A stretch of 64,000 nt of DNA from a virus, in IMG/VR virus record IMGVR_UViG_3300022744_000001, positions 2,022 through 66,021 of that record; one strand, given 5' to 3'. The position numbers and the translations under genes are program-made. This document shows, one piece after another, positions 1-51,758 of this stretch. Each line of letters starts with the position of its first letter. Positions within the stretch are counted from its first letter, which is position 1. The notes below the pieces were generated by a model. That model was not told the DNA's origin, searched no databases, and was given only the letters and a program-made list of their open reading frames with translations.

Positions 1-198
1 GCTCTCCACCCAGACGTCTCCGTAGCCGCATTCGAAGAAATCGTAGCCGTGCTTGACAGGGTCAGTGAGCCCTGACGACCGAACGGCCGCTTGGAAGCGC
101 CCGCCGTCCGGACTGCACCCGCCCGACTTCGCGATTATGAAATGCATTACCAGGGCAATGCACCAGCCCCAGAACGTAGCGGATGATTCGCTTGACAT
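1..198 (-). CDS. hypothetical protein, N-terminal part only (ORF runs off window start)
   Basis: ATG at 196-198 on the reverse strand, then 66 sense codons to position 1 without a stop. Hydrophobic stretch ATFWGWCIALVMHFIIA. Absent from the ORF track because the window edge truncates it. Confidence 0.3.
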   Translation of the reverse strand, partial: MSSESSATFWGWCIALVMHFIIAKSGGCSPDGGRFQAAVRSSGLTDPVKHGYDFFECGYGDVWVES

Positions 199-258
199 AG
201 GCCAGGTGGTACACCGGATCTGCTTGATTCCTTCACTAGCTCAGGCTCTAATCGAGCT

Positions 259-504
259 ATGGCTAGGCTGAAATTCTACTACTGTGAATGTGGGTGCAAG
301 GGCGCCCAGGCTTCCGCGGGCCCTCTGCACTACTGGATCTACAACGACCTTCGCGGGACGTTTACGCTCCGCCAGGGGCATGGGCACTTGGGCACCAAGC
401 TCGGGGAGTTCAAATCCCACGAGAGCGCTACATGGGCGGCCAACGACCACGCCAAGGTCGAAGCCGAGAAGATCGTGGAGCAGCTCCAACCCCTCCTCAG
501 CTGA
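259..504 (+). CDS. hypothetical small protein (81 aa)
   Basis: ATG ORF ending in TGA with G/C-rich third positions. Cys cluster YYCECGCKG. No family recognised. Confidence 0.45.
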   Translation: MARLKFYYCECGCKGAQASAGPLHYWIYNDLRGTFTLRQGHGHLGTKLGEFKSHESATWAANDHAKVEAEKIVEQLQPLLS

Positions 505-506
505 AA

Positions 507-583
507 TGGCACCCGCGTAGGGATTCGAACCCCAAACCTCATGGTCCGTAGCCATGTGCTCTATCCAGTTGAGCTACGCGGGC
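507..583 (-). tRNA. tRNA-Arg (anticodon ACG)
   Basis: Reverse complement folds as a 77-nt cloverleaf. Acceptor GCCCGCG/CGCGGGU, D-arm GCUC-AACUGGAUA-GAGC, anticodon arm CAUGG-CUACGGA-CCAUG, T-arm UGGGG-UUCGAAU-CCCUA, encoded GCCA end. Confidence 0.85.
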
Positions 584-589
584 AGAAAA

Positions 590-666
590 TGGCGTCCGCA
601 GGAAGATTCGAACTTCCAACCTTTGGCTTCGTAGGCCACTGCGCTATCCGATTGCGCCATGCGGAC
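590..666 (-). tRNA. tRNA-Arg (anticodon ACG), second copy
   Basis: 77-nt cloverleaf. Acceptor GUCCGCA/UGCGGAC, D-arm GCGC-AAUCGGAUA-GCGC, anticodon loop CUACGAA, T-arm GGAAG-UUCGAAU-CUUCC, GCCA end. Lies 6 nt from the first Arg gene. Confidence 0.8.
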
Positions 667-668
667 AT

Positions 669-744
669 TGGTGGAGAAGAAGGGACTCGAACCCTCAGCC
701 TGTCGCGTGCAAGGCGACTGCTCTTCCAATTGAGCTACTTCCCC
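669..744 (-). tRNA. tRNA-Ala (anticodon UGC)
   Basis: 76 nt. Acceptor GGGGAAG/CUUCUCC includes the G3:U70 alanine identity pair. Anticodon loop CUUGCAC, T-arm GAGGG-UUCGAGU-CCCUU, ACCA end. Confidence 0.9.
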
Positions 745-749
745 AAACT

Positions 750-824
750 TGGCACCCCAGACGGGTTTCGATCCCGCTTGTCCTGCATGAAAGGCAGGCA
801 TCCTAGCCACTAGATGACTGGGGC
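750..824 (-). tRNA. tRNA-Glu (anticodon UUC)
   Basis: 75 nt. The 5' part GCCCCAG-UC-AUC-UAGUGGCUAG-GAU has the bacterial tRNA-Glu architecture. Anticodon arm CCUGC-CUUUCAU-GCAGG, T-loop AUCGAAA, GCCA end. Confidence 0.8.
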
Positions 825-830
825 ATAAAT

Positions 831-907
831 TGGCGTCCCTCCGGGGATTTGAACCCGCGATTTGCAACTTGAGAGGCTGCTGTCCTTGCCAACTAGACGA
901 GAGGGAC
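831..907 (-). tRNA. tRNA-Glu (anticodon CUC), T-stem imperfect
   Basis: 77 nt. Acceptor GUCCCUC/GAGGGAC is perfect, with a Glu-type D region UC-GUC-UAGUUGGCAAGGAC and anticodon arm GCAGC-CUCUCAA-GUUGC. The T-stem gives only 3-4 bp in any register. Confidence 0.6.
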
Positions 908-931
908 AAAATCTGGTGTAACTTCCGGGGC

Positions 932-1261
932 ATGCCTCGCAAGACGCAACCCCCGACCGACCTTGAACGAGCGTTCAAAGCCCAGGTGAAAAACACGCTG
1001 AACGCCCTCATTTTGGGGCGAAACATCAGCCGAAATCAACTCGCCAAACGCATGGGAATCTCGATGTCCCGTCTCACCGAGATGCTGGACATACCCTCGC
1101 TGGGCAACATCTCCCGCATCTGCGAAACTCTGAACGTCGAGCCCCAGATCCGACTCAAGGCCGCGAGCCGCAATCGCCCCCCGCCGAAGCTCGAGGAGGG
1201 GGCCCTCAAAGGACGACCCAAGAATGCGCCACCAGAGGCTGAGGATGAATGTCTCGATTGA
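932..1261 (+). CDS. XRE/Cro-type helix-turn-helix protein
   Basis: 109-aa ORF from ATG 932, just past the tRNA at 831-907. HTH-like segment RNQLAKRMGISMSRLTEMLDIPSLGNISRICETLNV. The track start at 830 would overlap the tRNA. Confidence 0.55.
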   Translation: MPRKTQPPTDLERAFKAQVKNTLNALILGRNISRNQLAKRMGISMSRLTEMLDIPSLGNISRICETLNVEPQIRLKAASRNRPPPKLEEGALKGRPKNAPPEAEDECLD

Positions 1262-1619
1262 GAGGTACCTAGCCGGGTTCGAGCAAACCATCGAACGGCT
1301 CCCCGGCATCCTCGACCGCTGGGAGAGCATCGAAGACATGCTCTGCGGCGAGTACATCGACCAGCTCGAATGGATGCTCGACGTCCGGGAAGACGTCCTC
1401 AACCTCGCCGTGGAGCAAGGCCAGGGCACCCCGGTTCGTGCCCGCATGGACCGAATCAACGCCGGTCTAGGGCGCCTCAGCATCCGGATCAAAGAGGTCA
1501 TGGGCGTCGATGTTCTCGAGACCCTGACTCCAGAGTTGGAGCCCGCAGTGGGAATCGAACCCACAGCCTCCTGTTTACGAAACAGGTGCTCAACCGTTGA
1601 GCTATACGGGCGAAAGTAA
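1245..1619 (+). CDS. hypothetical acidic protein
   Basis: ATG 1245 lies 17 nt upstream of the upstream gene's stop codon, so the two ORFs overlap (...GGATGAATGTCTCGATTGA). 124 aa. The 3' ~80 nt overlap tRNA-Thr on the opposite strand, so the true C-terminus is uncertain. Confidence 0.45.
   Translation: MNVSIERYLAGFEQTIERLPGILDRWESIEDMLCGEYIDQLEWMLDVREDVLNLAVEQGQGTPVRARMDRINAGLGRLSIRIKEVMGVDVLETLTPELEPAVGIEPTASCLRNRCSTVELYGRK
1537..1611 (-). tRNA. tRNA-Thr (anticodon CGU)
   Basis: 75 nt. Acceptor GCCCGUA/UGCGGGC, D-arm GCUC-AACGGUU-GAGC, anticodon arm CCUGU-UUCGUAA-ACAGG, T-arm GUGGG-UUCGAUU-CCCAC, UCCA end. Confidence 0.85.
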
Positions 1620-1641
1620 CAGGGGCACTCGTACCCCTGTT
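1618..1641. terminator. hairpin between convergent genes
   Basis: AACAGGGG-cactcgta-CCCCTGTT, an 8-bp perfect stem between the + ORF ending at 1619 and the - ORF ending at 1646. Confidence 0.4.
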
Positions 1642-1645
1642 GAAA

Positions 1646-2623
1646 TCAGAAGTTGTCCGAAACGACAACCCAGAAGTCGCTGGCCAACTGGGTGTTCTTC
1701 GCGTAGGCGTAGCTCATCCAGAAGTACCCAGCGAGGCCCCAGTTGACGCCCCACGAGTTGCGAACGAGGAATGCACCCGTGGTGCCGTCGGGCATCTTCT
1801 TGGCGTCGTCGTAACCGACGAGCGCGACAGCATGACCGCCCTGCAAGTGTTCCGTGGGACCCGGCAAGCCAAGAAGCGCTTTCTTGGCCATGTCTGCGGT
1901 CATGAAATAATCGTAAACTTGGAACCCAAATCCAACGAGATACCCCATCGCCAACGTGGACTTCATCGTGGCGATGTCCCCGTCCGCGATCGAGTGGTAG
2001 CTCGTGATCAGCTTCGTAGCTGCCTTGGCCCAGAGGTCCGGGGTTGGGTTGACCGTGAACTTCTGGATGTTGTAAGGCCAGCTGGCCTCGTCCAAAATCC
2101 CGTACTTGACTCCGGTCTTGATGGCATCACGAATCGTGGCGCCCGAGTCTTCGTTGACGGTACCTTCGATCTTACGGGTCGCGTAATACTCAAAGAGCCG
2201 CGACACCTGGGTGAACTTCGGGGCGGGAGTCGGGGCCGGGGTCGGCGTGGGAGCCGGAGCCGGGTTGGACACCGCCACGTTGGTCGTGAACGTGACCGAA
2301 CCGTCCGCATTGACCACGACGTTCGAGGTGGTCACCTTGGCGGTAGCCGCGGTAGCTGCCAGCTTCTTCGAAGTCGCCCCGCGGAGGTCGCTGCTCTCGA
2401 TGAGGGCCGCGAACATATTCGCAGTGCAGCTCCCGAGTTCACCTTGGTCCTCGATAGGGCTGCAAATGGGTCGATTGTCGTAAGAGGGTGGGGTAGCAAA
2501 GAAGTTGCCGGACTTGAGACGGTATCCCTCGTCTCGAGCGTCAACAAGCTGCTTCTTCCAACCACCAACATGAACCCTACGAGGGGTCCCGTCCGCATGA
2601 TGTGCAGTCTTGATCATGCACAT
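1646..2623 (-). CDS. papain-family (C1) cysteine peptidase with internal insert
   Basis: 325 aa. Motifs QGELGSCTAN (catalytic Cys), GGHAVALVGYD (His) and VRNSWGVNWGLAGYFW (Asn/Trp block). A ~70-aa insert after the Cys helix ends in PAPAPTPTPAPTPAP. Confidence 0.8.
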   Translation of the reverse strand: MCMIKTAHHADGTPRRVHVGGWKKQLVDARDEGYRLKSGNFFATPPSYDNRPICSPIEDQGELGSCTANMFAALIESSDLRGATSKKLAATAATAKVTTSNVVVNADGSVTFTTNVAVSNPAPAPTPTPAPTPAPKFTQVSRLFEYYATRKIEGTVNEDSGATIRDAIKTGVKYGILDEASWPYNIQKFTVNPTPDLWAKAATKLITSYHSIADGDIATMKSTLAMGYLVGFGFQVYDYFMTADMAKKALLGLPGPTEHLQGGHAVALVGYDDAKKMPDGTTGAFLVRNSWGVNWGLAGYFWMSYAYAKNTQLASDFWVVVSDNF

Positions 2624-2679
2624 ACGCGTGAATAAGAGGGTTAGTTAGCCCGTAAAACTAGCACTTTTGCTAGTCAAAA

Positions 2680-2754
2680 TGGCTCCGAGGGTAGGGGTCG
2701 AACCTACGACCATCCGGTTAACAGCCGGACGCTCTGCCACTGAGCTACCTCGGA
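2680..2754 (-). tRNA. tRNA-Asn (anticodon GUU)
   Basis: 75 nt. Acceptor UCCGAGG/CCUCGGA, D-arm GCUC-AGUGGCA-GAGC, anticodon arm UCCGG-CUGUUAA-CCGGA, T-arm GUAGG-UUCGACC-CCUAC, GCCA end. Confidence 0.9.
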
Positions 2755-2787
2755 ATAGACTCTGTCCCGCAGGACAGGCCGTAAAAA

Positions 2788-3429
2788 CTACCGTGGTTTT
2801 GCAGTGTCACCTTGGATGTAACCCTGCCGGTCAAGCTCTTCCACGGCGAAGTGGTTCTTCCACTTGATGACCAGGTGCTTCTGCCGGAACTCGTCAACGA
2901 CGATCCGATCCGAGAAAATCGTGACGACCGAGTCGTGGTAGCCGGTTCGGTCGAGAACCTCAACTTCCTGACCCTTGCGGTAGACACGAGAGGTCTGGTT
3001 TGACCACTCATACCCAGCAAGCTCGACTTCCTCTGGGCCGAGAAGCTCTTCCAGAGGCGGTTCGGAAGCCGTGACCGAGCTGGCGAACTTGTCGCTCTCT
3101 TTGGCGGAGTCCTCGACCTTCTTTTCGAAGTCGTGAGGGTCCATGGTCCGAATGTCGAACCACAACGACCGTGCGTGATTCAAGTTGTGGCCACCGGCTC
3201 GGCCGGAGCTGTACGAGACGTACACGGCCTGGGCCTTGAACCAAACCCGAATCGTCCCATCCGGAGACGTCGCGTGCGGCACCTTGAGCCCGTCAACCAC
3301 CTTCCAACGCTCCTTCTTCAAGTGCTCGAGGATTTCAGCTCGAGCTTCAAGGAAGGTCTTGCGCTTGGCGGTCTTGTCAGAGAAGGCCGCGGCGACGCGG
3401 AGGGCGATGTCGATGGGGTGGTTGGCCAT
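2788..3429 (-). CDS. hypothetical protein (213 aa)
   Basis: ATG ORF with TAG stop and coding-like composition. No family recognised. Confidence 0.55.
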   Translation of the reverse strand: MANHPIDIALRVAAAFSDKTAKRKTFLEARAEILEHLKKERWKVVDGLKVPHATSPDGTIRVWFKAQAVYVSYSSGRAGGHNLNHARSLWFDIRTMDPHDFEKKVEDSAKESDKFASSVTASEPPLEELLGPEEVELAGYEWSNQTSRVYRKGQEVEVLDRTGYHDSVVTIFSDRIVVDEFRQKHLVIKWKNHFAVEELDRQGYIQGDTAKPR

Positions 3430-3488
3430 GTGTTCCTCTCTCTACGGGCCGCACGAAAAGAGTAGCGCACCGAAGTGCACCCTCGAAA

Positions 3489-3573
3489 TGGCTCCAGGAG
3501 CAGGATTCGAACCTGCGATTGGGTTTCCCCGCGCGGTTAACAGCCGCGTGCACTACCACTATGCGACCCTGGA
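3489..3573 (-). tRNA. tRNA with anticodon GUU (Asn) and a long variable arm
   Basis: 85 nt. Acceptor UCCAGGG/UCCUGGA, D-arm GCAU-AGUGGUA-GUGC, anticodon arm CGCGG-CUGUUAA-CCGCG. The 15-nt variable region CGGGGAAACCCAAUC contains a GGG-AAA-CCC hairpin. T-arm GCAGG-UUCGAAU-CCUGC, GCCA end. Confidence 0.7.
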
Positions 3574-3576
3574 ATA

Positions 3577-3738
3577 GGTGCGCGCGAAGCGCACCGAAAT
3601 AAAATGGGTGGAGGATCCGAGGCCGGGCATCAAAGCACCACGACCGAAGGTTCGAAGCTCTGGCCGCAACACGACGCCAACAGACCTCGGACCCTCCACC
3701 AAGGAAGGCCCCATAAGAGCCTTCCCTCGTTTCTCTTG
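3577..3738 (+). other. structured non-coding segment inside the tRNA cluster
   Basis: Three elements: hairpin GGTGCGC-gcgaa-GCGCACC (3577-3595); a long-range inverted repeat pairing 3607-3622 with 3685-3700 (15 of 16 bp); then GGAAGGC-N9-GCCTTCC followed by CTCGTTTCTCTTG (3703-3738). ORFs in the track here look non-coding. Confidence 0.3.
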
Positions 3739-3951
3739 CCTCAAGCTAGAGTCGTATCGCCCGTCATGTCCCAGCCGCTGGAGCCCCTCAGTATAGTCGA
3801 GGGTCGATCACGCTCTGGCGCTACACGCATGGAGGTACCATGCGCGACGATTCACGCTCTAACCTGTCAGATTTTCAAAGACTTACCCGATGATTTCCAG
3901 CAAGAAGCCCGGAGGCTCGTACCCGAGGGTACCTGTGCACATCGTGTAACT

Positions 3952-4028
3952 TGGTGGGCCTGCGGGGACTCGAACCCCGAACCGTTCGCTTAAGAGGCGA
4001 CTGCACTGACCAGTTGTGCTACAGACCC
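3952..4028 (-). tRNA. tRNA-Lys (anticodon CUU)
   Basis: 77 nt. Acceptor GGGUCUG/CAGGCCC, D-arm GCAC-AACUGGUCA-GUGC, anticodon loop CUCUUAA, T-arm CGGGG-UUCGAGU-CCCCG, ACCA end. Confidence 0.85.
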
Positions 4029-4077
4029 GAAATTCGCTAATCTACGTCTTGGTACCTGTCCGGAGACAAGTGAAACT

Positions 4078-4152
4078 TGGTGAGGCCAGAGAGACTTGAA
4101 CTCTCAACCGTCGGGTTAAAAGCCCGCTGCACTACCATTGTGCTATGACCTC
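4078..4152 (-). tRNA. tRNA-Lys (anticodon UUU)
   Basis: 75 nt. Acceptor GAGGUCA/UGGCCUC, D-arm GCAC-AAUGGUA-GUGC, anticodon arm GCGGG-CUUUUAA-CCCGA, T-arm GAGAG-UUCAAGU-CUCUC, ACCA end. Confidence 0.85.
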
Positions 4153-4154
4153 AT

Positions 4155-4242
4155 TGGTGGAGGATGATGGAGTCGAACCACTCAGCCTTAATGACGCCTC
4201 GTTTACAGCGAGACCTGCCTCCCGGGGCACACGTCACCCTCC
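4155..4242 (-). tRNA. tRNA-Tyr (anticodon GUA), class II
   Basis: 88 nt. Acceptor GGAGGGU/AUCCUCC, anticodon arm UCUCG-CUGUAAA-CGAGG, long variable arm as in bacterial tRNA-Tyr, T-loop UUCGACU, ACCA end. Confidence 0.75.
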
Positions 4243-4438
4243 TCAGATTTGAGAAGAGCTGAGCTTCGATAGCGATCCAACACTCCGTTTTGTGGCTTGC
4301 TCAGCATGGTTGACCCCAGGAAACGTTGAAAAAGATGCAGAAATCCACTCACCCGGAGACACTCCGGGCGTACGAGCCCCAACCCCAAACCGTGGGTTAC
4401 GGTGCAGCTGGAACTAGATTTTTGAGCCTGAAACGACT

Positions 4439-4469
4439 GAAGCCGCCCGAGGTTTCCCAGGGCGGCTTC
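4439..4469 (-). terminator. 10-bp hairpin downstream of small minus-strand ORF
   Basis: GAAGCCGCCC-N11-GGGCGGCTTC, a perfect stem 30 nt past the stop of the ORF at 4499-4696. It lacks a strong U-tract. Confidence 0.35.
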
Positions 4470-4498
4470 GAAGGTACACGGGTTTGTCCCGGTGCTTC

Positions 4499-4696
4499 TT
4501 ATCCGCCCCTTGTTCCCTCCTCCGGCTTGGCATGGCGATACGAGGAGGGTTGCCAGGGATTAAGGGTGCTCAGATCCGTGGCAATGGATGCGACGGCGCT
4601 TTCAAAGCGCTTCGCGGTCACAAACTGACCCTGACCCTGGCCGCCAACGACGACCATCGCCAAACACAAACCAGCGGCCGACGCCATTCTTGGCAT
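4499..4696 (-). CDS. small protein with signal-peptide-like N-terminus
   Basis: 65 aa from ATG 4696, preceded by GAAAGGAACG (SD-like). N-terminus MPRMASAAGLCLAMVVVGG is hydrophobic. A hairpin lies just downstream. Confidence 0.4.
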   Translation of the reverse strand: MPRMASAAGLCLAMVVVGGQGQGQFVTAKRFESAVASIATDLSTLNPWQPSSYRHAKPEEGTRGG

Positions 4697-4949
4697 CGTT
4701 CCTTTCTGGGCTGTGGTGGTGAGTATCGTTGACATGACCGTCTCTCGGTTATCGCCCCGGCGGGGCGTCTTGACACTACAGACCCCTCATAAAAGGGGTA
4801 TTGGGCTAGTCGAGGGCCTTCAAAGCCAATCGGCTAGACACCCTCAAGCTACACCGGCCGTTCCGGGGGCCGCAACCACTTTTTTCGTCACCCCTGTCGA
4901 ATTTTCTCCCAGCCCCCTCTAGTGGAAGTTCTTGTGAACTCGCCCTAGT

Positions 4950-5558
4950 GTGCTGCCCAAGACCGCCCAAGCATTCCTCGATGACGTCTCCAAGTCCGTG
5001 AAAGCATCACGGAAATTCGAGTGCGCCGCCTTCGGCTCCGAGTGGGATCGATTCGTCGAAACTTGGATGCCCACCCTTTACGATTTCGTGGCTCAAGCTC
5101 TCGGGCCCTACGGTCGGGAGCCCCTGCCGACCATCCTTCGCATGGAGGACGGGATGCACATGAGCGGGGCGACCGCGAGCTTTCACATGGGCACGGGGCA
5201 GATCCACATTTGCCAGTCGGTCGAGGGAAACCCCGGGCAAACGCTCGAGAAACTCACCCATGAACTCGTGCATGGGGCCCTGGCCCAGTTCCCGAGCGTG
5301 GACCCGTTTTACGACGAAGGGGCAGTCGATTATTCAACTTGGGTTCTCGCACACGCCCCCATCTACGGCAACCTGCGGGAGAGGGTCATCGCCTCAGCGA
5401 GTTTCAACATCAAGATGCGTCGTGAACGGGCAATGAGGGACTTGTCCGACTATGACCGCAAACGTTGGGCCGGAGGATTGTTCTACAACCTCTCTCACGG
5501 TCCAATGCTCCTAGCCAAACTCAGGATGAAGAAAGAGGCGGGCGACTTCACCTGGTAG
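4950..5558 (+). CDS. putative zincin-type metallopeptidase (HExxH)
   Basis: 202-aa GTG-start ORF with motif LTHELVHGAL and a TAG stop. No further family assignment. Confidence 0.5.
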   Translation: MLPKTAQAFLDDVSKSVKASRKFECAAFGSEWDRFVETWMPTLYDFVAQALGPYGREPLPTILRMEDGMHMSGATASFHMGTGQIHICQSVEGNPGQTLEKLTHELVHGALAQFPSVDPFYDEGAVDYSTWVLAHAPIYGNLRERVIASASFNIKMRRERAMRDLSDYDRKRWAGGLFYNLSHGPMLLAKLRMKKEAGDFTW

Positions 5559-7349: not shown

Positions 7350-7682
7350 ATGGCGTGGCTCGGCCCCCGATCGGGCATCCAGTGGTATGTGTACCTTCTC
7401 CGCTCCGAGAAGATCCCCCACCTCTACACGGGCATCACCACCGACCCTGAACGACGCCTGGCCCGCCACAACAACGGCACAGGGGCGAAGTTCACTCGCG
7501 GCCGAGGCCCGTGGTCCATCGCCTACCTCGAGCCCACCATGGACCACCGGGACGCCCTCCGCCGCGAGCGCGAAATCAAAGGCTGGAGCCGAGCCGAGAA
7601 GCTCGAGCTGATCAAGCGACCTTCCGCCGACCCTGTTTCGGCCTCTGCGCCACCGGTGCGACAACGTTCTCGAACTCGGTAA
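7350..7682 (+). CDS. GIY-YIG nuclease superfamily protein (UPF0213/URI-like)
   Basis: WYVYLLRSEKIPHLYTGITTDPERRLARHNNGTGAKFTRGRGPW...ALRREREIKGWSRAEK. The last ~70 nt overlap the convergent helicase ORF. Confidence 0.75.
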   Translation: MAWLGPRSGIQWYVYLLRSEKIPHLYTGITTDPERRLARHNNGTGAKFTRGRGPWSIAYLEPTMDHRDALRREREIKGWSRAEKLELIKRPSADPVSASAPPVRQRSRTR

Positions 7683-20602: not shown

Positions 20603-21220
20603 ATGGATCTCTCTGAAACGATTTCTGCCCTTCAACCCGGCGAGATGAAAACCATCATTTCTGCGACGGTTGAGAAACCCAAGCGTGACCTGCAACTTCT
20701 CCCGCTGGTCTACCATCCGAGCCCAATCCTCAACGAGGAGTGCTTTGAGATCCCTGCGGTGACCGAGGACATCGTTTGGTTGGCCAAGGACATGCTCTTC
20801 ACGATGATGAAGCGGCATGGGGTGGGGCTCGCGGCGCCCCAGGTGGGCCACAGCCTTCGACTGTTCGTGGTGGACGTCGGCTGGGTTCGGGGAATCGAGC
20901 ACTCGGACCCCAAGGTGTTCATCAACCCCAGGGTAACTCCCGCGAGCCCGAGCCAGGACAGGGCTCCGGCCGAAATCTCCTCTACCGAGGGCTGCCTCTC
21001 CTTCCCTGGCACGAAGGCTACTTTGCCGCGCTACGAGGTCGTCCACGTTCATGCCCTGGGCATCGACGGCAGGCCATTTGAGCTGTACGCGGACGAGCTT
21101 CTAGGACGCGTGGTGCAGCACGAGAACGACCACTTGAACGGGGTTACCATCCACCCGCACCTCGGTCGCATGCAGCGCCAAGAACTCCGGAAGGGGCTCG
21201 AGAAGGCCCGCCGCGGCTAA
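20603..21220 (+). CDS. def: peptide deformylase
   Basis: All three PDF motifs are present: GVGLAAPQVG, EGCLSFPG and QHENDHLNG. Confidence 0.9.
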   Translation: MDLSETISALQPGEMKTIISATVEKPKRDLQLLPLVYHPSPILNEECFEIPAVTEDIVWLAKDMLFTMMKRHGVGLAAPQVGHSLRLFVVDVGWVRGIEHSDPKVFINPRVTPASPSQDRAPAEISSTEGCLSFPGTKATLPRYEVVHVHALGIDGRPFELYADELLGRVVQHENDHLNGVTIHPHLGRMQRQELRKGLEKARRG

Positions 21221-24189: not shown

Positions 24190-27100
24190 TCAGGCCGGTA
24201 CATGGGGCATGATCCACCAGTTGGTCCCGTCGCAAGCTGCATGGAATCCTTGGCGCCCAGATGCCCCGAATGCAACACCGGTAGTGGCCAAAGTTCCGTT
24301 GATGTTTCCGGAGCTGGATTTCAATGTGAAAGTGTTGCTATCCGTGGTGGTCTTCATGAGTGTAAGAGAGTGTCCACCGCTACTAGCAGGTGCAGGCAGC
24401 TGAATGTTTGCGATAGCTCCGCCTGATGTGTCGATCATAGTAAACGCGCCAGAAGACAGAGTTCCGCTGCCTCCGAGTGAGTCTACCTTTGAAAGAATGA
24501 TGGCTCCATACCCAACGCCGAACCCGGACCCGGGCCGACGCCCCACATAGAGGTCTACTGAGTTTGTGGTTAGAACTGCGGTGCCTGCTGCTGGGGCGAT
24601 AACCACTGCGCCGTGGTCGCCAGAGCCAGCAGGGGCGCCCGTGGTCAGCGTGATGTCTCCGCCGTTCTGGTTGCCGCCGACAGCCGAAGTTGCTGTGATG
24701 TTGACCGCGCCGCCGACCCCAGAAGTGGCTGTGGTGCCCGCAGAGATATTTACGGTGCCACCAACACCATTGGCGTTGTTGGCGCCTCGGACCGTGACCG
24801 AGCCAGCGGTTCCAGACCCGGTTGAGACACCGCCTGCGATAGTGATGCTTCCACCATTTTGGTTGCTTCCAGCAGCTGCACCCGCGGTAACGACGATGGC
24901 GCCACCTGTGCCTGAACCGCTAGCAGCACCAGCAGTGATAGTGACTTGGCCGCCAGCCCCCGAGGTTGAACCGCCAGCCCCCGCAAGGAGCAGAGCAGTA
25001 CCTCCGCTACCTGTAGCGCCTCCAGCTCCCGCACGAAGGGACGCGCCACCTCCCCCAGAAGAGCCTCGGCTGCTGCCTGCGGTGAAACTGATATCTCCAC
25101 CGGCGCCGGACGTAGCAGAAGCATTCGCGCTGCCTCCTGTAGCGGTGAAGCTACCGCCGTTGCCGCTACCAGTGCCGCCGGTACCTCCAGTGAAGGTAAA
25201 GGAACCGCCGACACCAGTTTGACCAGCTCCACTCGAGGCCGCTCCCGCGTTGAATGTGAAGCTTCCGCCGTTGTTGGCGCTCAAGCTTCCACCGCTGCCG
25301 CCAGTGAAAGTGATCGAACCGCCAGAGCCGCTCGATGTGCTGCCACAAGTGAGGGCGATGGAGCCACCAGCACCCGATGTTGAAGCGCCCGCAGTGATTT
25401 GAAGGGCTCCGCCAGCACCAGAGGTAGAACCGCCCACGCCTGAGAACAGCTGGAGAACAGCACCTGCTCCCGTTGCGCCCGAGGTACCGGGTTGAACCAG
25501 AAGGGCGCCCGCCGCCGAAGCACCGAAACCATCACCGGTTCGAATCGTGGTGGTTCCGCCAACCGCCGACGAACCGCCAGAGACGGCATCCGCCCCCTTG
25601 ATGGTTACAGAGCCTGCTGTGCCGCCGTTAGTCGGGGAGCCACCCGTGATGGTGATTGCACCACCAGCTTGAGTGGTACCTACGCCCGCTCCGCCCGTGA
25701 TGGAGAGGGCTCCGCCAGCACCAGACGTCGTAGCTGCACCACCCTGGAGAGAAAGGGTGCCTCCAGCTCCAGAAGTGGCACCACCAGGACCGCCTTTGAC
25801 GACTACCGAGCCGCCCGTGTTGGTACCTCCAGGAGTGCCGCCTTGGATGGTGACTGTGCCACCGTTACCCGCGGCAAGAGAGGTGCCTCCGTTGATGTTG
25901 AGGGCACCACCAGCACCGGTCAGGCCCCCGGTACCTCCCTGTGCTGTCAGGGAGTACCCAGTTCCAGCTCCGACAAGATCGGCAGGTTTGATAGTCGGGG
26001 AGGTGCCAGTGGTAACAACCACCCCGCTATCAATCAATGCTGTAGCCGCCGAGCTACTCCAGACGGGGACCCCGTTGGTGTTCCCAGAACCTGGGCCTGT
26101 GACCCCGCCCCCACCTCCGGTTCCTCCAAGAGGGAGCACTCGCCACGCGTTGCTGGTGTAGTCCCGCACTAGCAACGCCGCAGAACCACCAGTCAGGGAG
26201 TAATCGGTTGCCGAAGGGCAAATAAGCCGATTGAATGCAGACGATCCAGCATCTTGGTGTTTGAGGGTCAGTGTCGTACTGGAGCGGTTTACAAGGAAAC
26301 GCTGTGAGTAGGACAGGTCGAGGTCAGTGTCGCGGAAGAAGCCCGTAACGGTTGCACCCGAAGTGACCGCATCAAAAAAGATCGTCCGCGCAAAACGCCA
26401 CTTGTAGATGTCTCCAAGCTTGTAGTCGTTGTTGGTGCCGCTGACCGAGACCGACGCGGTCTGCTCGATGGAGGGGTAAGTGAAAAGGTTGTCACTCGTC
26501 CCGCCAAAGTTGTTGTTCGCGAACTTCGAAGCGTTGTTGTTCGTTGCGTCGGTAGTGACAGGATTGTTGAACAACACGATTGAGGCCGGGGCACCGTCGT
26601 CAACCAAGTACCCAGAGGTTCCGACGTTCGCGTTGAAGATCTGAAGGTACCCTCCGTTGGTAATGAATGGGTACCCTGTGATACCTGCCAACCAAGTGCT
26701 TGCTGGGAATTCACAATAGACGTCGAGCGATCCGCCATTGCCTGCATTAATCCACGAAGACGTTGCGGCCCCATCGGTGTAGAGCTGGGAAAATCTCCCC
26801 AAGGTAATCGAGGGGTAATCGCTGGGGCTCATCGTATAGAGGGCCCCAGACGTCTTGTGGTTGACCATCACTACGTTTTCGATTCGACGAGGCAGCTTAA
26901 CGATGACCGCGGGGTCATAGAAGTTCATGACCGCTGTGCCGAGAGGATCTGTTGACGAGCGGCCAACGATCTCACAGTCCGTGAAGTCAAAGGAGTTGCT
27001 ACCGCTAAGGGGTACATTCGTAAGCAGCGTGATTCGACACGGGCCAGGGTGCCTTGCTGCAAGAAGCAGAGCCATGTCGTTATACGTGTTGCCCGAAGGT

Positions 27101-27192
27101 GAGGCTCCCGAGTCAAACACGAAGTCAGCCACCACGATTTCCTCGAAGGTGTGCCCAGCGGCGCTCGACAAAACTGGATAGCGATTCGACAT
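24190..27192 (-). CDS. glycine-rich repeat fibre/tailspike-like protein (1000 aa)
   Basis: A ~370-aa non-repetitive N-terminal region is followed by ~500 aa of degenerate GGxG/GAGG repeats (for example GGTGGLTGAGGALNINGGTSLAAGNGGTVTIQGG). The C-terminal domain is distinct. Confidence 0.65.
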   Translation of the reverse strand: MSNRYPVLSSAAGHTFEEIVVADFVFDSGASPSGNTYNDMALLLAARHPGPCRITLLTNVPLSGSNSFDFTDCEIVGRSSTDPLGTAVMNFYDPAVIVKLPRRIENVVMVNHKTSGALYTMSPSDYPSITLGRFSQLYTDGAATSSWINAGNGGSLDVYCEFPASTWLAGITGYPFITNGGYLQIFNANVGTSGYLVDDGAPASIVLFNNPVTTDATNNNASKFANNNFGGTSDNLFTYPSIEQTASVSVSGTNNDYKLGDIYKWRFARTIFFDAVTSGATVTGFFRDTDLDLSYSQRFLVNRSSTTLTLKHQDAGSSAFNRLICPSATDYSLTGGSAALLVRDYTSNAWRVLPLGGTGGGGGVTGPGSGNTNGVPVWSSSAATALIDSGVVVTTGTSPTIKPADLVGAGTGYSLTAQGGTGGLTGAGGALNINGGTSLAAGNGGTVTIQGGTPGGTNTGGSVVVKGGPGGATSGAGGTLSLQGGAATTSGAGGALSITGGAGVGTTQAGGAITITGGSPTNGGTAGSVTIKGADAVSGGSSAVGGTTTIRTGDGFGASAAGALLVQPGTSGATGAGAVLQLFSGVGGSTSGAGGALQITAGASTSGAGGSIALTCGSTSSGSGGSITFTGGSGGSLSANNGGSFTFNAGAASSGAGQTGVGGSFTFTGGTGGTGSGNGGSFTATGGSANASATSGAGGDISFTAGSSRGSSGGGGASLRAGAGGATGSGGTALLLAGAGGSTSGAGGQVTITAGAASGSGTGGAIVVTAGAAAGSNQNGGSITIAGGVSTGSGTAGSVTVRGANNANGVGGTVNISAGTTATSGVGGAVNITATSAVGGNQNGGDITLTTGAPAGSGDHGAVVIAPAAGTAVLTTNSVDLYVGRRPGSGFGVGYGAIILSKVDSLGGSGTLSSGAFTMIDTSGGAIANIQLPAPASSGGHSLTLMKTTTDSNTFTLKSSSGNINGTLATTGVAFGASGRQGFHAACDGTNWWIMPHVPA

Positions 27193-30874: not shown

Positions 30875-31156
30875 ATGCATGCAGGGGAAGCAAATCCGGT
30901 AGGTCGTGAACCGGCCATTGAGCGGGCGATACGCTTCTCCTTTGGCAGGGATGGCTCTCGCGCACAAGCAGCACTCCCAAGGCTTTTTGGTGATGGTCCG
31001 GGCCCAGAGGACTCGGACAGTGCAGCCCTCGACGGTCAGGTTGGAGAGGTAGGAGGTCCCGGGGAGGAACTCCTTCTTGTTCGTGATTGAGACCACAGAG
31101 TAGGTTTGGCACAGAACCGGTGTCAGTGTCACCGATGCGTGATGCCCCCGCCCCAC
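30857..31156 (-). CDS. hypothetical Cys-rich protein (start uncertain)
   Basis: 99-aa ORF containing CCLCARAIP...CFPCMH. Its N-terminal ~20 nt overlap the divergent ARH gene, so an internal start is possible. Confidence 0.35.
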   Translation of the reverse strand: MGRGHHASVTLTPVLCQTYSVVSITNKKEFLPGTSYLSNLTVEGCTVRVLWARTITKKPWECCLCARAIPAKGEAYRPLNGRFTTYRICFPCMHKDESG

Positions 31157-32049
31157 TTCTTGGTCAAGCCATCGCTGATGCCCTGGGTATGCCGTTCGAG
31201 TTGTGTGGTCCCGAAGATCCCAAGTTGAAGGACTGGGATGGGCAGACCTACCACTCGAGCGAGTACCACAAGCTCATGCCAGGGCAGTGGTCCGACGACA
31301 CGATGATGGCCAAGCTCCTGGCCGAAAGCCTTCTCCAGGTGGGCGGGTATGACCCGGAGAACGCAGCCAAACGCTACCTGGGTTGGTACAAGAGCGGGGA
31401 CCACCGGGGGATGGGGACGGCGACCAGGACCGCCCTCGGTCGCCTGGACGAGGGCAAGGATTGGTCGGAGTCCGGAGTCGAGAACGCCCAGGGGAACGGG
31501 ACCGCCATGAGGGCGATCCCTCTCGGGGTTTTCTTCCGGAACCGTCTCGACCTCCTCGTCGAGGCTGCAAGCTTGGACTCTCACATCACCCATCGGTCGG
31601 ACGAGGCTGAGGAGGGGGCGATCGCAATCGCCCTGGCTGCCGCATACCTCTACCGTGGCCTCCCGAAGGATGAGCTTCCAGAGGCTATCTCGAGGCGGCT
31701 CAAAGACGGCCCCATCAAGACCGGAGTCATGAAGTGCGAGTTCTACCTTCGCACCGGCGGAGTCTCGGTTGGGGAAGCACTCCGAGTCATTGGCACGAAA
31801 CCCCACGTGGTCCAGACCGTGCCCGCTGCCCTGGCCGCGTTCCTTTTGTCCAAGACCTACCTGGAGGCTGTCCAAGCTGCGATTCGGGCCGGGGGCGATA
31901 CGGACACCACAGCCGCCATCGCCGGTGGCCTGGCGGGCATCTACTACGGTCGCCAAGCCATCCCCGCGGACCTCATCCCTCCGCTCGAGGCCGCAGACGC
32001 CCTCAGTGGGCTCGACTTCCAACTCAACACCCCTGCCCGTGAACTCTGA
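31135..32049 (+). CDS. ADP-ribosylglycohydrolase (DraG/ARH family)
   Basis: GQAIADALGMPFE, QWSDDTMM, GNGTAMRAIPLG and GGDTDTTAAIAGGLAG blocks. ATG 31135 chosen within the track ORF that starts at 31087. Confidence 0.85.
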   Translation: MRDAPAPLLGQAIADALGMPFELCGPEDPKLKDWDGQTYHSSEYHKLMPGQWSDDTMMAKLLAESLLQVGGYDPENAAKRYLGWYKSGDHRGMGTATRTALGRLDEGKDWSESGVENAQGNGTAMRAIPLGVFFRNRLDLLVEAASLDSHITHRSDEAEEGAIAIALAAAYLYRGLPKDELPEAISRRLKDGPIKTGVMKCEFYLRTGGVSVGEALRVIGTKPHVVQTVPAALAAFLLSKTYLEAVQAAIRAGGDTDTTAAIAGGLAGIYYGRQAIPADLIPPLEAADALSGLDFQLNTPAREL

Positions 32050-33051: not shown

Positions 33052-33729
33052 GTGGACAGTAGCGCAGAAGAGTTTGAGCAGATAGTGCGCGAGAGTTTAT
33101 CCGCTGCACAAGCCCTACGAAAACTGGACCGGGCTACCGTGGGGTCCAACTACGACTGGGTGCGTCGGGAGGTTCAACGGTTTGGGCTCGACACATCTCA
33201 CTGGGGAAGAGCTGGTGCTCGCAATACAACCCCGAACCTCGATGAGGTTTTCATTGAGAATGGTGCCTACTCAACAGGTCTTGTTAAGACGATCATTCTT
33301 CGTGAACGTTTACTCCCGGAGCTGTGTGCTGAGTGTGGATTAGGACCCTCCTGGAGGGGTAAGAAATTAGTCCTCCGCCTTGACCACAAAAACGGGAAAC
33401 GAAGTGATCACCGGCTCGGAAACTTGCGTTTTCTGTGTCCGAACTGCGACTCTCAAACAGAGACATTTTGCGGTCGCAACAAACGTCTCCCAGCCAAGCT
33501 GTGTAAATGCGGGGTGGCAATAGGGCAGCAGTCCGCAGCTTGCAGGTCGTGCACGGCAAAAAGCAGAAAACCAACAACGAAAATCGTTTGGCCTCCATTC
33601 GAGGAAGTGCAGGAAAGGGTCAAAAACACCTCCTTCCTTGCCACAGCCAAACATCTTGGTGTATCAGATAATGCAGTTCGGAAGTTTTTACGCTCCCGTG
33701 CCCGAGTGGTTGAAGGGGCAGGATTCTAA
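33052..33729 (+). CDS. HNH homing-endonuclease-like protein
   Basis: LRLDHKNGKRSDHRLGNLRFLCPNCDSQ is an HNH core. N-terminal ...GLDTSHWGR and C-terminal LGVSDNAVRKFL are HTH-like. Visibly lower GC than the flanks. The last 38 nt overlap the tRNA. Confidence 0.75.
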   Translation: MDSSAEEFEQIVRESLSAAQALRKLDRATVGSNYDWVRREVQRFGLDTSHWGRAGARNTTPNLDEVFIENGAYSTGLVKTIILRERLLPELCAECGLGPSWRGKKLVLRLDHKNGKRSDHRLGNLRFLCPNCDSQTETFCGRNKRLPAKLCKCGVAIGQQSAACRSCTAKSRKPTTKIVWPPFEEVQERVKNTSFLATAKHLGVSDNAVRKFLRSRARVVEGAGF

Positions 33730-33783
33730 ATCCTTGGGGCCGCAAGGCCCACGCCGCAGGTTCGAACCCTGCCGGGAGCGCCA
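33692..33783 (+). tRNA. suppressor tRNA, anticodon CUA (reads UAG), serine-type architecture
   Basis: 92 nt: GCUCCCG-UG-CCC-GAGUGGUUGAA-GGG-G-CAGGA-UUCUAAA-UCCUU-[20-nt variable arm G-GGGCC-GCAA-GGCCC-ACGCC]-GCAGG-UUCGAAC-CCUGC-CGGGAGC-G-CCA. The acceptor and T stems pair perfectly. Confidence 0.8.
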
Positions 33784-41840: not shown

Positions 41841-41989
41841 ACAGCCCTTTGTTCAAGCACTCCGCGAAATACTGCACTCACTGCCAGAAAAACTCGAGGG
41901 AGCAGGTTCACTACCAGCGAGGCTTCAACAAGGGTGTGCACTGGCAATGCAAGATCTGTGGGAGAAAGTCCGTGCGTTGCTCTAAGTGA
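41837..41989 (+). CDS. small zinc-ribbon protein (50 aa)
   Basis: ATGA overlap with the upstream gene. CTHCQ...CKICG. Confidence 0.45.
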   Translation: MNSPLFKHSAKYCTHCQKNSREQVHYQRGFNKGVHWQCKICGRKSVRCSK

Positions 41990-43628
41990 ATCGGTGCCCG
42001 CCGGACTCCTTGGAGTCGTACATGGCGGCATCCGCGATCCGTACAAGGCTCTCAGGCTCACGCCCGTGCGTTGGGAACAAGGCCAGACCGATGCTGGCGC
42101 GAACCCCAACCTCTTCTCCGGAGGGCAGCTCGATAGGCTCCCCTACCAAGTTGAGGATCTTCGTCGCCACTGGGCCTGCATCGCCTTCTTGCGCAAGGTC
42201 GTCCAGCACAACGACGTACTCGTCGCCCCCTAGTCTGGCCACGACGTCGGTTCTTCGCACGCAAGCTCGGAGCCGGGCCGCGACCTCCTTGAGCACGATG
42301 TCTCCAGCGTCATGGCCGTGAGTGTCATTGACCTCTTTGAAGCCGTCGAGGTCGATGAACAGGACTGCGAGCTTGCTGTCGTACTGCTCTGCTCGAGCGA
42401 GCTTCGAAGCCAACGTGTTCATCAGCGTCGCCCGGTTCTGGAGCCCCGTGAGCGGGTCAGTATGGGCTGCTTTGATGAGGGCTGCCTCGGTCCTCTTTCG
42501 CTCAGTTACGTCACGGGCCACAACATAGAGCTTCCCCTCCACGTGAGCAGGGAAGTGCCAGGAGAGCCATCGCCACGTCCCATCTTTGCACCGGGCCCTG
42601 CACTCGAACTTCACCCCGTCGTAACCGCTGGCGAGCTTTGAGAGCTGCTCCTGCATGTCCATCCGGTCATCCGGGTGGAGCAGGTCGAAGATGGGGCGGC
42701 AAAGCAGCTCGTCCTCGGAGAAGCCCAGGACGCGAGTGAACGAGGGGTTCACTCGGATGAAGTAGCCGTCAAGCCGTGCGACACAGATGAGGTCAAGGCT
42801 CACGGTGAAGAGTCGATCGCGCTCTTCCTCGGCTCGTTTGCGGTCCGTGACGTCGGTGGCGGCCCAAAGGTAGCCAACGAGGTCTCCGGTGTCTTCTCGC
42901 ATGACCACCGTCTTCGCGCTGACCCAGAGAATGGATCCGTCGGGCCGAAGAAATCGGAACTCATGCTCGAACGAGAGGCCGAGGTCTGTGAGCCGCCGCC
43001 ACGCCATCATGACCGCTCGTCGGTCGTCTGGGTGCACAGCTCGAGTCCAGCCTTGCCCGTAGCACTCCTCGAGAGACAGGCCGCACATCTCCGACCAGGT
43101 TCGGTTCACAAACCCGCACCGGCCATGCTCGTTGGTCATGAGGGTGCCCGCGGGGGTCTCGTGGATGAACGCTCGGAGCTTGCTCTCGCTCTCGCGAAGG
43201 GCCCGCTCCATGTTCTTGGTGGCAGAGATGTCCCGGAAGGTGAGTAGAGCCCCGTGCGGTTTCTGCCCAGGCTTCTGAAGCGGGCGCGTGTTCGTGCTGA
43301 CCCAAACGGCAGTCCCATTCGGGCGAGCAACCTCCAGCACAACACTCGAGAGGGCGATGCCCGTGCGCAGGGACACTACGGCCGGGTGGTCATCCTTCGA
43401 AAGGAGAGACCCGTCCTCGCATGAAATACGAGGCGCATCGGACATATACTTTCCGATCAGGTCCTTCTCTGTAACCCCGAGGATCCGGGCCGCACAAGGG
43501 TTCGCCTCAACGATCTGTTCGGTTGCATCGATGACGAAGACCCCCTCCTCCATTGATTCGATCAAGGAGCGGTAGAATGCCTCATCTAACTGCAATCCCG
43601 CACTTTTGGTTACGTCTGAGTTCGGCAT
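41982..43628 (-). CDS. PAS-PAS-PAS-GGDEF diguanylate cyclase
   Basis: 548 aa. Three PAS-like repeats, each ending in a ...DVT(D/E)RK-type linker. The GGDEF domain has LFIDLDGFKEVNDTHGH, the active site RLGGDEYVV, and an RxxD (RRTD) 5 residues upstream. Confidence 0.85.
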   Translation of the reverse strand: MPNSDVTKSAGLQLDEAFYRSLIESMEEGVFVIDATEQIVEANPCAARILGVTEKDLIGKYMSDAPRISCEDGSLLSKDDHPAVVSLRTGIALSSVVLEVARPNGTAVWVSTNTRPLQKPGQKPHGALLTFRDISATKNMERALRESESKLRAFIHETPAGTLMTNEHGRCGFVNRTWSEMCGLSLEECYGQGWTRAVHPDDRRAVMMAWRRLTDLGLSFEHEFRFLRPDGSILWVSAKTVVMREDTGDLVGYLWAATDVTDRKRAEEERDRLFTVSLDLICVARLDGYFIRVNPSFTRVLGFSEDELLCRPIFDLLHPDDRMDMQEQLSKLASGYDGVKFECRARCKDGTWRWLSWHFPAHVEGKLYVVARDVTERKRTEAALIKAAHTDPLTGLQNRATLMNTLASKLARAEQYDSKLAVLFIDLDGFKEVNDTHGHDAGDIVLKEVAARLRACVRRTDVVARLGGDEYVVVLDDLAQEGDAGPVATKILNLVGEPIELPSGEEVGVRASIGLALFPTHGREPESLVRIADAAMYDSKESGGHRFT

Positions 43629-51236: not shown

Positions 51237-51461
51237 TCACCAGTAGTCCCACCGGATGTGGCGGGGGTAGCGGTCGGGGATACGCTCGAACTGGCGGGTT
51301 CGGAGGGCGTCGTGGACGAGACGCCGAGCGCTTTTCCAGTTCATCCGTTGTGCCCACCGGCAGTAACCGATGGTCATAACGCTGTAGCCTCGCAGCTTCT
51401 TATGCCTTGAACGCTTCTTTCGACGGTAGTTCGTGTGCACTCGTCCCTCGTAGGGCGCCAA
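51237..51461 (-). CDS. small basic protein (74 aa)
   Basis: ATG ORF, Arg/Lys-rich. No family recognised. Confidence 0.4.
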   Translation of the reverse strand: MAPYEGRVHTNYRRKKRSRHKKLRGYSVMTIGYCRWAQRMNWKSARRLVHDALRTRQFERIPDRYPRHIRWDYW

Positions 51462-51470
51462 AGGGGCGTC

Positions 51471-51737
51471 CTAACGGGGCTTCGTGTCGGTCGTAGATGG
51501 TCGGCATGGGTCGTCTACACCATAGATGGTTTCGCCGCTGGCGACAAACTCTTCCGCCCACCGCACGAGAACCTGGTCCTCAACGTAGTAAAGGGCGGTC
51601 CCGTCGTTGCCCTTCTGCTGGTTGATGCTGTTCGAGATGAGCTGACCCAGGCGTAAATGAGGGCTGCTCACCCAGGCCGCGTAGAGGCGGTTGATGACTT
51701 CCTTCTTCTGTTCTGGTGTAAAGGCTCTATCTTGCAT
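51471..51737 (-). CDS. hypothetical protein (88 aa)
   Basis: Internal ATG 51737 chosen (MQDRAFTPEQKKEV...). Confidence 0.45.
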   Translation of the reverse strand: MQDRAFTPEQKKEVINRLYAAWVSSPHLRLGQLISNSINQQKGNDGTALYYVEDQVLVRWAEEFVASGETIYGVDDPCRPSTTDTKPR

Positions 51738-51758
51738 GACTACTTCCTGGAGGGTCGC

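Follow-up and report, generated by a model that had tools for sequence, protein, structure and literature searches.

The closest known analogue of the locus described here is the tRNA island of the Xanthomonas jumbo phage XacN1 (AP018399). XacN1 carries 29 tRNA-like genes in each terminal repeat, with all 20 amino acids represented; it has two CUA suppressors without detectable read-through targets, genes for tRNA processing and repair, and a tRNA set that matches its phage-biased codons (PMC5852040). Huge phages from metagenomes have up to 67 tRNAs, the number rising with genome size (Al-Shayeb et al. 2020, PMC7162821). Phage tRNAs that evade nucleases have been described for T5, whose Lys, Thr and Asn tRNAs act against PARIS and whose Tyr tRNA acts against retron effectors, and for mycobacteriophages of cluster C1 (PMC12409363, PMC11555353, PMC10264068). 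Here we analysed a stretch of 64,000 nucleotides of viral DNA (positions 2,022 to 66,021 of the IMG/VR record IMGVR_UViG_3300022744_000001; hereafter the window), which holds an array of 11 tRNA genes near its left end.

Employing ARAGORN over the whole window, we identified 12 tRNA genes, 11 of them on the minus strand between 507 and 4239 (Table 1). These are exactly the genes, with the same anticodons, that an earlier note on this DNA had placed at 507-4242. The density of the array, 11 tRNAs in 3.7 kb, stands against a single tRNA in the remaining 60 kb. All 11 genes encode the 3' CCA, and ten pass the gathering threshold (29 bits) of the Rfam tRNA model RF00005 with 44.9-70.9 bits. The genes lie on one strand and are separated by 2-7 nt inside sub-clusters, the arrangement by which jumbo-phage tRNA islands are recognised. 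Within the window the array covers seven amino acids. Arg, Asn, Lys and Glu had been called duplicated in the earlier note. This holds for Arg and Asn, which each share an anticodon (Arg-ACG, 75% identical; Asn-GUU, 68% identical), are the only such pairs and are old paralogues; the two Arg genes differ at position 37. It does not hold for Lys and Glu, whose genes are different isoacceptors (UUU and CUU; UUC and CUC).

The gene flanking the array encodes a 202-amino-acid HExxH metalloprotease-like protein that matched no Pfam or PHROG family and, by tblastn, had no match in cultured phages. Using it as a marker, we identified 32 viral loci with relatives, and nearly all of these loci belong to contigs of 150-450 kb (homologous loci retrieved are labelled L001 and so on). 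In about 28 of the 32, a minus-strand tRNA island lies just upstream of the marker gene. In most of them the order resembles that of the window: Tyr-GUA, Lys-UUU, Lys-CUU, [Gln], Asn, Asn, Thr-CGU, [Met], Glu-CUC, Glu-UUC; further tRNAs in these islands are those for Ile, Phe, Pro, Leu, His, Ser, Arg, Asp, Trp, Ala, Gly and Cys, and also Met and Val. The relatives' islands comprise 19 to at least 47 tRNAs for 12-20 amino acids. Within the 10 kb fetched per locus, we counted 33 tRNAs in L014, 35 in L030 and 41 in L017; one further fetch from the contig of L017 (L044) added six, bringing that island to at least 47 tRNAs and all 20 amino acids. Islands of L004 and L037 also contain a gene for transfer-messenger RNA (tmRNA). 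The marker gene and the largely conserved order define a clade and provide a comparative set of about 640 tRNA genes from which constraint can be read. Three features exposed by this set are two paralogues of Asn(GUU), structurally unusual Tyr tRNAs and a two-hairpin element at the island boundary.

L012, with 73% protein identity the closest relative, has the tRNA order of the window gene for gene and continues after Arg with Met, Phe, Met, Ile, three Pro and Leu. The spacer at the left edge of the window aligns with a segment of L012 that lies between its Arg-ACG and the next tRNA, a Met at 4759-4827 (Table 1). The window therefore begins about 120 nt short of the next expected tRNA, and on this alignment the array almost certainly continues beyond the left edge. 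The array tRNAs are 75-84% identical to their best relatives with cloverleaves kept, and in the Asn and Tyr genes the acceptor and anticodon stems show covariation. Megablast and blastn searches of the window against 50,697 deposited phage records returned generic tRNA similarity only and no close relative. The gene content of the window is phage-like and accessory, and relatives of the marker and of a peptidase gene within the array are found on viral contigs of 150-512 kb. Very probably, the 11 genes form the proximal end of a tRNA island that is large and vertically inherited and belongs to an uncultured jumbo phage, the genomes of its relatives measuring 150-450 kb. The feature would then be an ordinary, previously uncatalogued island of this type, and the phage an uncultured, GC-rich addition to those with near-complete tRNA sets.

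The likeness to XacN1 extends to several details. XacN1 and relatives of the window have in common dozens of clustered same-strand tRNA genes interleaved with small open reading frames (ORFs), coverage of all 20 amino acids (in one relative) and GNRA-capped arms on class-I tRNAs. XacN1 and the window both have adjacent Lys, Lys and Tyr genes, a CUA suppressor without evidence of recoding, and an Asn(GUU) tRNA that bears an extra arm and has an identical D-arm sequence. XacN1 is also the best cultured match for a window protein, though a distant one (37% identity), and ARAGORN detected a tmRNA gene in its island. The XacN1 paper itself makes no mention of variable arms (PMC5852040). The two differ in that the HExxH marker is absent from XacN1, as from all cultured phages, that the order of Lys and Tyr relative to transcription is reversed, and that the XacN1 island lies in 66-kb terminal repeats with PNKP/Hen1 repair genes, neither of which was seen in the window. 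The clade also resembles the huge phages, metagenomic genomes of >200 kb with host-distinct tRNAs, tmRNA, peptide deformylase and further translation genes, for which a role in redirecting or securing translation has been proposed; in the available portion of that report, however, the gene order, the HExxH marker and the long-arm Asn tRNA of this clade are not described (PMC7162821). The T4 tRNA cluster with the mobile gene SegB is similar in that protein genes are inserted between tRNAs and vary in presence among relatives (PMC2330249). Here, however, the inserts are a helix-turn-helix (HTH) gene, a C1 peptidase gene and hypothetical ORFs, and 3 kb separate the array from the nearest GIY-YIG gene (7383-7682).

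In several relatives (L019, L024, L030, L032, L033 and L040), the distance of the marker and island from a contig end is between a few kb and about 20 kb, or the contig itself ends in the middle of the island. Such positions would be expected if the island lay in or beside terminal repeats, as in XacN1, or if assemblies broke at tRNA repeats.

The earlier note had proposed that the isoacceptor set overlaps the targets of anticodon nucleases and that the array fits a counter-defence role at least as well as codon supply. In its full form, this explanation makes the array mainly a counter-defence kit, with phage Lys, Asn, Tyr and Arg (and Thr and Glu) tRNAs replacing copies cut by PrrC, PARIS, retron and colicin-type enzymes and resisting cleavage through differences in sequence or shape. 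There is published precedent in T5 and in tRNA-rich phages, for which the counter-defence hypothesis has already been put forward (PMC10264068). The overlap with the target list was four of the seven amino acids, compared with six of 20 overall, which is not significant (hypergeometric P = 0.078). Moreover, the set corresponds to the first 11 genes of an island that is conserved and, in relatives, near-complete, and the overlap arises because the gene order is conserved and the window truncates it. When the edge of a window cuts through a tRNA island, the isoacceptors listed from it are no guide to which tRNAs have been selected for. We therefore reject the claim that this particular set points to counter-defence.

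The 7-nt anticodon loops of Lys, Asn and Tyr in the window are canonical and clade-predominant: of the clade genes compared, 23 of 27 for Lys-UUU have CUUUUAA, 32 of 42 for Asn have CUGUUAA and all 21 for Tyr have CUGUAAA. Lys(UUU), Thr(UGU) and Asn(GUU) are the targets of the Escherichia coli PARIS nuclease AriB; its recognition site is U36-A-A-U39, with cleavage before A41, and the resistant Lys tRNA of T5 has A39 and C41 (PMC12409363). Like the T5 set, the window includes Lys-UUU, Asn-GUU and Tyr-GUA, and its Lys(UUU), with UAACCC at positions 36-41, departs from the AriB site: it lacks UAAU and has C39 and C41 (the latter as in the resistant T5 tRNA) in place of U39 and A41 of E. coli. However, UAAU is kept in about ten of the 27 clade Lys(UUU) genes, and positions 39 and 41 vary among relatives; there is therefore no clade-wide avoidance of the PARIS site. 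Unlike the T5 tRNAs, those of the window have canonical anticodon loops. The Thr tRNA of the window is Thr(CGU), which is barely cleaved, and not the PARIS target Thr(UGU). Among about 50 window proteins scanned, we found no RNA ligase, PNKP or other tRNA-repair gene, and no aminoacyl-tRNA synthetase or CCA-adding enzyme. What speaks for a defensive role is redundancy within one anticodon, which codon supply does not need: the two Arg(ACG) genes differing at position 37, and the two recurring paralogues of Asn(GUU), one often with an extra arm. Taken together, these data make it unlikely that the array is mainly a counter-defence kit.

Codon usage was compiled from 35 confidently called window genes (10,092 codons). 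The array tRNAs read the preferred phage codons AAG (81%), GAG (74%), AAC (90%), TAC (86%), CGC+CGT+CGA (61%) and ACG (39%), and also the rare AAA (19%), GAA (26%) and GCA (10%); in total they read 26% of all codons. The earlier note had mentioned supply of rare A-ending codons by the UUC, UUU and UGC tRNAs; no selectivity for such codons was seen. Classical compensation, in which the tRNAs top up isoacceptors for A/U-ending codons commoner in the phage than in a GC-richer host, is compatible with the G+C at third codon positions (GC3, ~0.75-0.85 in the genes of the window, which has 60% GC overall) and with the appreciable shares of AAA, GAA and GCA. It does not account for tRNAs serving the most used G/C-ending codons (CUU/AAG, CUC/GAG, CGU/ACG, GUU/AAC and GUA/TAC), nor for the same-anticodon paralogues, and the relatives carry nearly every anticodon. 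We thus regard it as doubtful, and the codon pattern fits a complete-set strategy better than targeted compensation.

Codon supply and the replacement of nuclease-cut tRNAs are both published frameworks for tRNA-rich phages (PMC10264068, PMC12409363, PMC11555353). The earlier note was sound in invoking them and in stating that sequence alone cannot decide between them; its interpretation is partly supported, the specific argument from the isoacceptor set being an artefact of the window edge. In our reading of the array as part of a large jumbo-phage island, both are plausible as contributing pressures and are not exclusive alternatives.

According to this island reading, the genes would be transcribed polycistronically from the minus strand, as the spacers of 2-7 nt and the hairpins after some genes suggest, and the transcripts would be processed to mature tRNAs without the need for CCA addition. 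Together with the rest of the island, the array would supply a nearly self-sufficient phage decoding set and could make phage translation, including late translation, independent of the host tRNA pool. The threats covered would be turnover or shut-off of host tRNAs in a long infection, codon mismatch across hosts and defences that target tRNAs. Which 11 tRNAs are visible would follow from gene order and the window boundary, not from selection for nuclease targets, and the HTH, C1 peptidase and hypothetical genes would be lineage-specific insertions into the island. The island has translation-related company: a peptide deformylase gene and a CUA tRNA gene elsewhere in the window, and the tmRNA genes in relatives' islands.

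Several points weigh against this explanation. A scan of window positions 1-5200 for sigma-70 promoters and terminators gave nothing above shuffled sequences. The continuation of the array to the left of the window is read solely from synteny, strong as that synteny is. General decoding supply is a broad notion and does not explain why there are two very different Asn(GUU) and two Arg(ACG) tRNAs.

The Tyr(GUA) gene gave no match to RF00005; its best match was the tRNA-Sec model with 28.4 bits (E = 0.014), below the threshold of 47 for that model. With the gene end at 4242, as in the earlier note, it has a fully paired 7-bp acceptor stem, GGAGGGT/ATCCTCC with one G-U pair, followed by A73 and CCA, and this end suits the predicted structure better than the ARAGORN end at 4239. 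We compared 21 distinct Tyr genes, that of the window and 20 from relatives. A fully paired 7-bp acceptor stem (G-U allowed), the CUGUAAA loop and an extra arm are present in all 21, and A73 in 20. D-stems of 4-6 bp are combined with D-loops of only 3-7 nt, and the first T-stem pair (49:65) is mismatched in 12 of the 21, including the window gene (A49-C65). The weak Rfam score is due to these long D-stems, small D-loops and mismatched pairs, and by its conservation across the clade we take the Tyr gene to be a genuine conserved tRNA gene despite its failure against Rfam. An 8/4 or 9/3 fold as in allo-tRNAs was considered and has inconsistent support across the clade: pairs G8-C65 and A9-U64, which would give a 9/3-like fold, are possible in the window and L012 genes, but 8:65 is pairable in only seven of 21.

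The low Tyr score and the non-canonical T-arms of Glu(UUC) and Glu(CUC) could also be taken to indicate decaying, non-functional tRNA-like relics or an assembly artefact. This is highly improbable: Rfam scores of the other ten are 45-71 bits, the clade shows strong conservation of the anticodon loops, and order and structure are kept at 75-84% identity in about 28 independent contigs with compensatory changes in the stems.

The two very different Asn(GUU) paralogues recur throughout the clade, which lends mild support to a counter-defence component. The second paralogue of the window has a 15-nt extra arm that folds as a GGG-GAAA-CCC hairpin. Long-arm Asn(GUU) genes are also present in seven relatives, with arm stems of 3-5 bp that differ and covary among copies (GUA/UAC, GUG/CAC, CCC/GGG, AGGG/CCCU and GGCA/UGCC), and a GNRA tetraloop (GAAA or GCAA) caps the arm in seven of the eight clade copies. 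These tRNAs usually have U1-A72 and G73 as in canonical Asn tRNAs; one relative has A73. A hairpin of 3-5 bp at this position resembles the extra arms of Leu and Tyr tRNAs, which are of class II. The Asn anticodon, U1-A72 and G73 presumably point to Asn identity and not to Ser or Leu identity, and we know of no description, for cells, of a class-II-shaped tRNA with Asn identity marks. Ser identity was considered and judged unlikely: these tRNAs have an arm of only 3-5 bp and share their acceptor stem and G73 with the canonical Asn paralogue.

A long-arm Asn(GUU) gene, with the D-arm sequence of the window gene, is likewise found in XacN1 (Table 1). As a tentative proposal, to which we assign rather little likelihood, a second Asn(GUU) lineage would have been kept from XacN1 to the uncultured clade with its arm as a functional adaptation, and a counter-defence or orthogonal element would be this paralogue, not the whole array. 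By steric hindrance, the arm could keep off a host nuclease that targets tRNAs or a turnover enzyme of the host; alternatively, it could tag the tRNA as a substrate for charging or modification by an enzyme that the phage encodes. Should the long-arm Asn tRNA prove resistant to tRNA nucleases, or phage enzymes act on it, this would provide a concrete, testable case of counter-defence.

GNRA-capped extra arms also occur sporadically on other class-I tRNAs (Pro, Arg and Lys) of relatives' islands, and XacN1 has one on a Lys-CUU tRNA (Table 1). The GNRA-capped arm appears to be a recurrent module of this phage lineage.

Between the first tRNA gene and the HExxH gene lies a two-hairpin element that belongs to no Rfam family and occurs once in the window. 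Its core reads CTGAAACG...GCCGCC-N-GGTTTCCCAG-GGCGGC, then CCCTCCTC...GAGGAGGG, with compensatory changes at two pairs. The element is present in the window and 15 relatives, located 130-400 nt outside the first tRNA in constant orientation, and may be a leader, promoter, terminator or boundary element.

Pfam supported both protein genes that the earlier note had placed between the tRNAs, an HTH gene and a C1 peptidase gene. Its picture needs correcting as to strand: the HTH gene and the hypothetical ORF that follows it are on the plus strand, opposite to the tRNAs. The start of the HTH gene at 932 was inferred, as a longer ORF from 830 overlaps tRNA-Glu. Relatives of the C1 peptidase were found on IMG/VR viral contigs of 251-512 kb, and on one of these the peptidase gene is surrounded by 32 tRNA genes and a tmRNA gene. 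Apart from the window, a single contig (L004/L031) has the peptidase gene within a tRNA island, and in L001, L002, L003 and L005 it is distant from tRNAs; the interleaved protein genes are therefore accessory insertions and not functional partners of the tRNAs. In L012, the Thr and Asn tRNA genes are adjacent without intervening genes, so the peptidase gene and the 213-amino-acid ORF of the window are insertions relative to that locus.

A contig of a metagenome-assembled genome labelled Lysinibacter sp. (L045; JBBAQX010000004.1, 127 kb) carries the same marker with 24 upstream tRNAs. It was the single match for the marker among 185,579 species genomes, and is probably a jumbo-phage contig binned into an actinobacterial genome. 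The label is a weak hint as to the host and conflicts with the distant link to the Xanthomonas phage XacN1; neither served as host for comparing codons or anticodon loops.

Table 1. Positions of the tRNA genes, flanking elements and other features in the window and, where a locus label (L) is given, in related loci (L046, XacN1).
Feature	Position	Strand	Basis and remarks
Spacer at left edge of window	1-126		Window 4-126 aligned with L012 4947-5069, 76% identity
tRNA-Arg(ACG)	507-583	-	ARAGORN; Rfam 62.6 bits; anticodon loop CUACGGA; CCA encoded
tRNA-Arg(ACG), paralogue	590-666	-	ARAGORN; Rfam 63.3 bits; loop CUACGAA; 75% identical to the 507-583 gene
tRNA-Ala(UGC)	669-744	-	ARAGORN; Rfam 69.7 bits
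tRNA-Glu(UUC)	750-824	-	ARAGORN; Rfam 49.9 bits; unusual T-loop AUCGAAA
tRNA-Glu(CUC)	831-907	-	ARAGORN; Rfam 44.9 bits; first T-stem pair weak
Cro/C1-type HTH regulator gene	932-1261	+	Pfam HTH_26 E = 4e-7, HTH_3; PHROG transcriptional regulator
Hypothetical ORF	1224-1619	+	Good GC3 signal; no Pfam/PHROG family; 3' end antisense through tRNA-Thr
tRNA-Thr(CGU)	1537-1611	-	ARAGORN; Rfam 70.5 bits; 83% identical to L012 Thr-CGU
Papain-family C1 cysteine peptidase gene	1646-2623	-	Pfam Peptidase_C1 E = 5.5e-14
tRNA-Asn(GUU), canonical paralogue, 75 nt	2680-2754	-	ARAGORN; Rfam 70.9 bits; 84% identical to L012 Asn
Hypothetical 213-aa gene between the two Asn tRNAs	2788-3429	-	No family; partial relatives in 4 viral loci, 3 on 199-408 kb contigs
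tRNA-Asn(GUU), second paralogue, 85 nt, long extra arm	3489-3573	-	ARAGORN; Rfam 55.1 bits
tRNA-Lys(CUU)	3952-4028	-	ARAGORN; Rfam 64.2 bits
tRNA-Lys(UUU)	4078-4152	-	ARAGORN; Rfam 69.1 bits; loop CUUUUAA; positions 36-41 UAACCC
tRNA-Tyr(GUA), divergent class-II	4155-4242 (ARAGORN end 4239)	-	ARAGORN and clade conservation; below Rfam tRNA threshold
Two-hairpin intergenic element	4424-4565		Between first tRNA and HExxH gene; no Rfam family
HExxH metalloprotease-like 202-aa gene (clade marker flanking island)	4950-5558	+	Invariant H104, E105, H108
Methyltransferase (DUF6094)-SNF2/ResIII helicase fusion, 1266 aa	7612-11412	-	Followed by 550-aa N6/N4 DNA methylase
Peptide deformylase	20603-21220	+
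Gly/Ser/Thr/Ala-rich ORF, 1000 aa	24190-27192	-	Degenerate 45-51-nt periodic repeats (GGxxGxGGxL-type); atypical codon-position GC; no Pfam/PHROG family
ADP-ribosylglycohydrolase	31087-32049	+
tRNA(CUA), amber suppressor, 92 nt	33692-33783	+	ARAGORN; extra arm GGGCC-GCAA-GGCCC; G73
Triple-PAS GGDEF diguanylate cyclase	41982-43628	-
Two-hairpin element in relatives	L012 7869-8010; L015 3762-3902; L017 9552-9690; L025 8891-9025; 11 more loci
Long-arm Asn(GUU) in relatives	L017 8515-8599; L020 8377-8460; L026 6946-7028; L027 6736-6820; L030 7587-7666; L034 6891-6978; L038 4489-4579
XacN1 long-arm Asn(GUU)	L046 45979-46067		89 nt; D-arm sequence same as that of the window's long Asn
Pro-CGG with extra arm	L004 6964-7046		Arm GGC-GAAA-GCC
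Arg-CCU with extra arm	L014 1553-1635		Arm GAC-GAGA-GUC
Lys-UUU with extra arm	L034 8361-8445		Arm GGC-GCAA-GCC
XacN1 Lys-CUU with extra arm	L046 30563-30651		Arm AGC-GAAA-GCU

The twelfth tRNA gene of the window, the amber suppressor, looks Ser-like by its long arm and G73. Recoding of TAG was considered and rejected: TAG ends 13 of 46 GC3-supported ORFs, and coding frames gain very little length when TAG is read through. Amber read-through has a single candidate, a weak one, in the TAG at 51473 within 51237-51860 on the minus strand, where two same-frame ORFs (114 and 74 amino acids) are split by this one TAG with coding-like GC3 on both sides.

Beyond the array, the window carries the enzyme genes listed in Table 1 and a 1000-amino-acid ORF at 24190-27192. 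The appearance of its GC3 had made this ORF a candidate for non-coding DNA, which was rejected: it encodes a Gly/Ser/Thr-rich repeat protein unrelated to the tRNA island. Its product is probably a fibre or adhesin-like structural protein.

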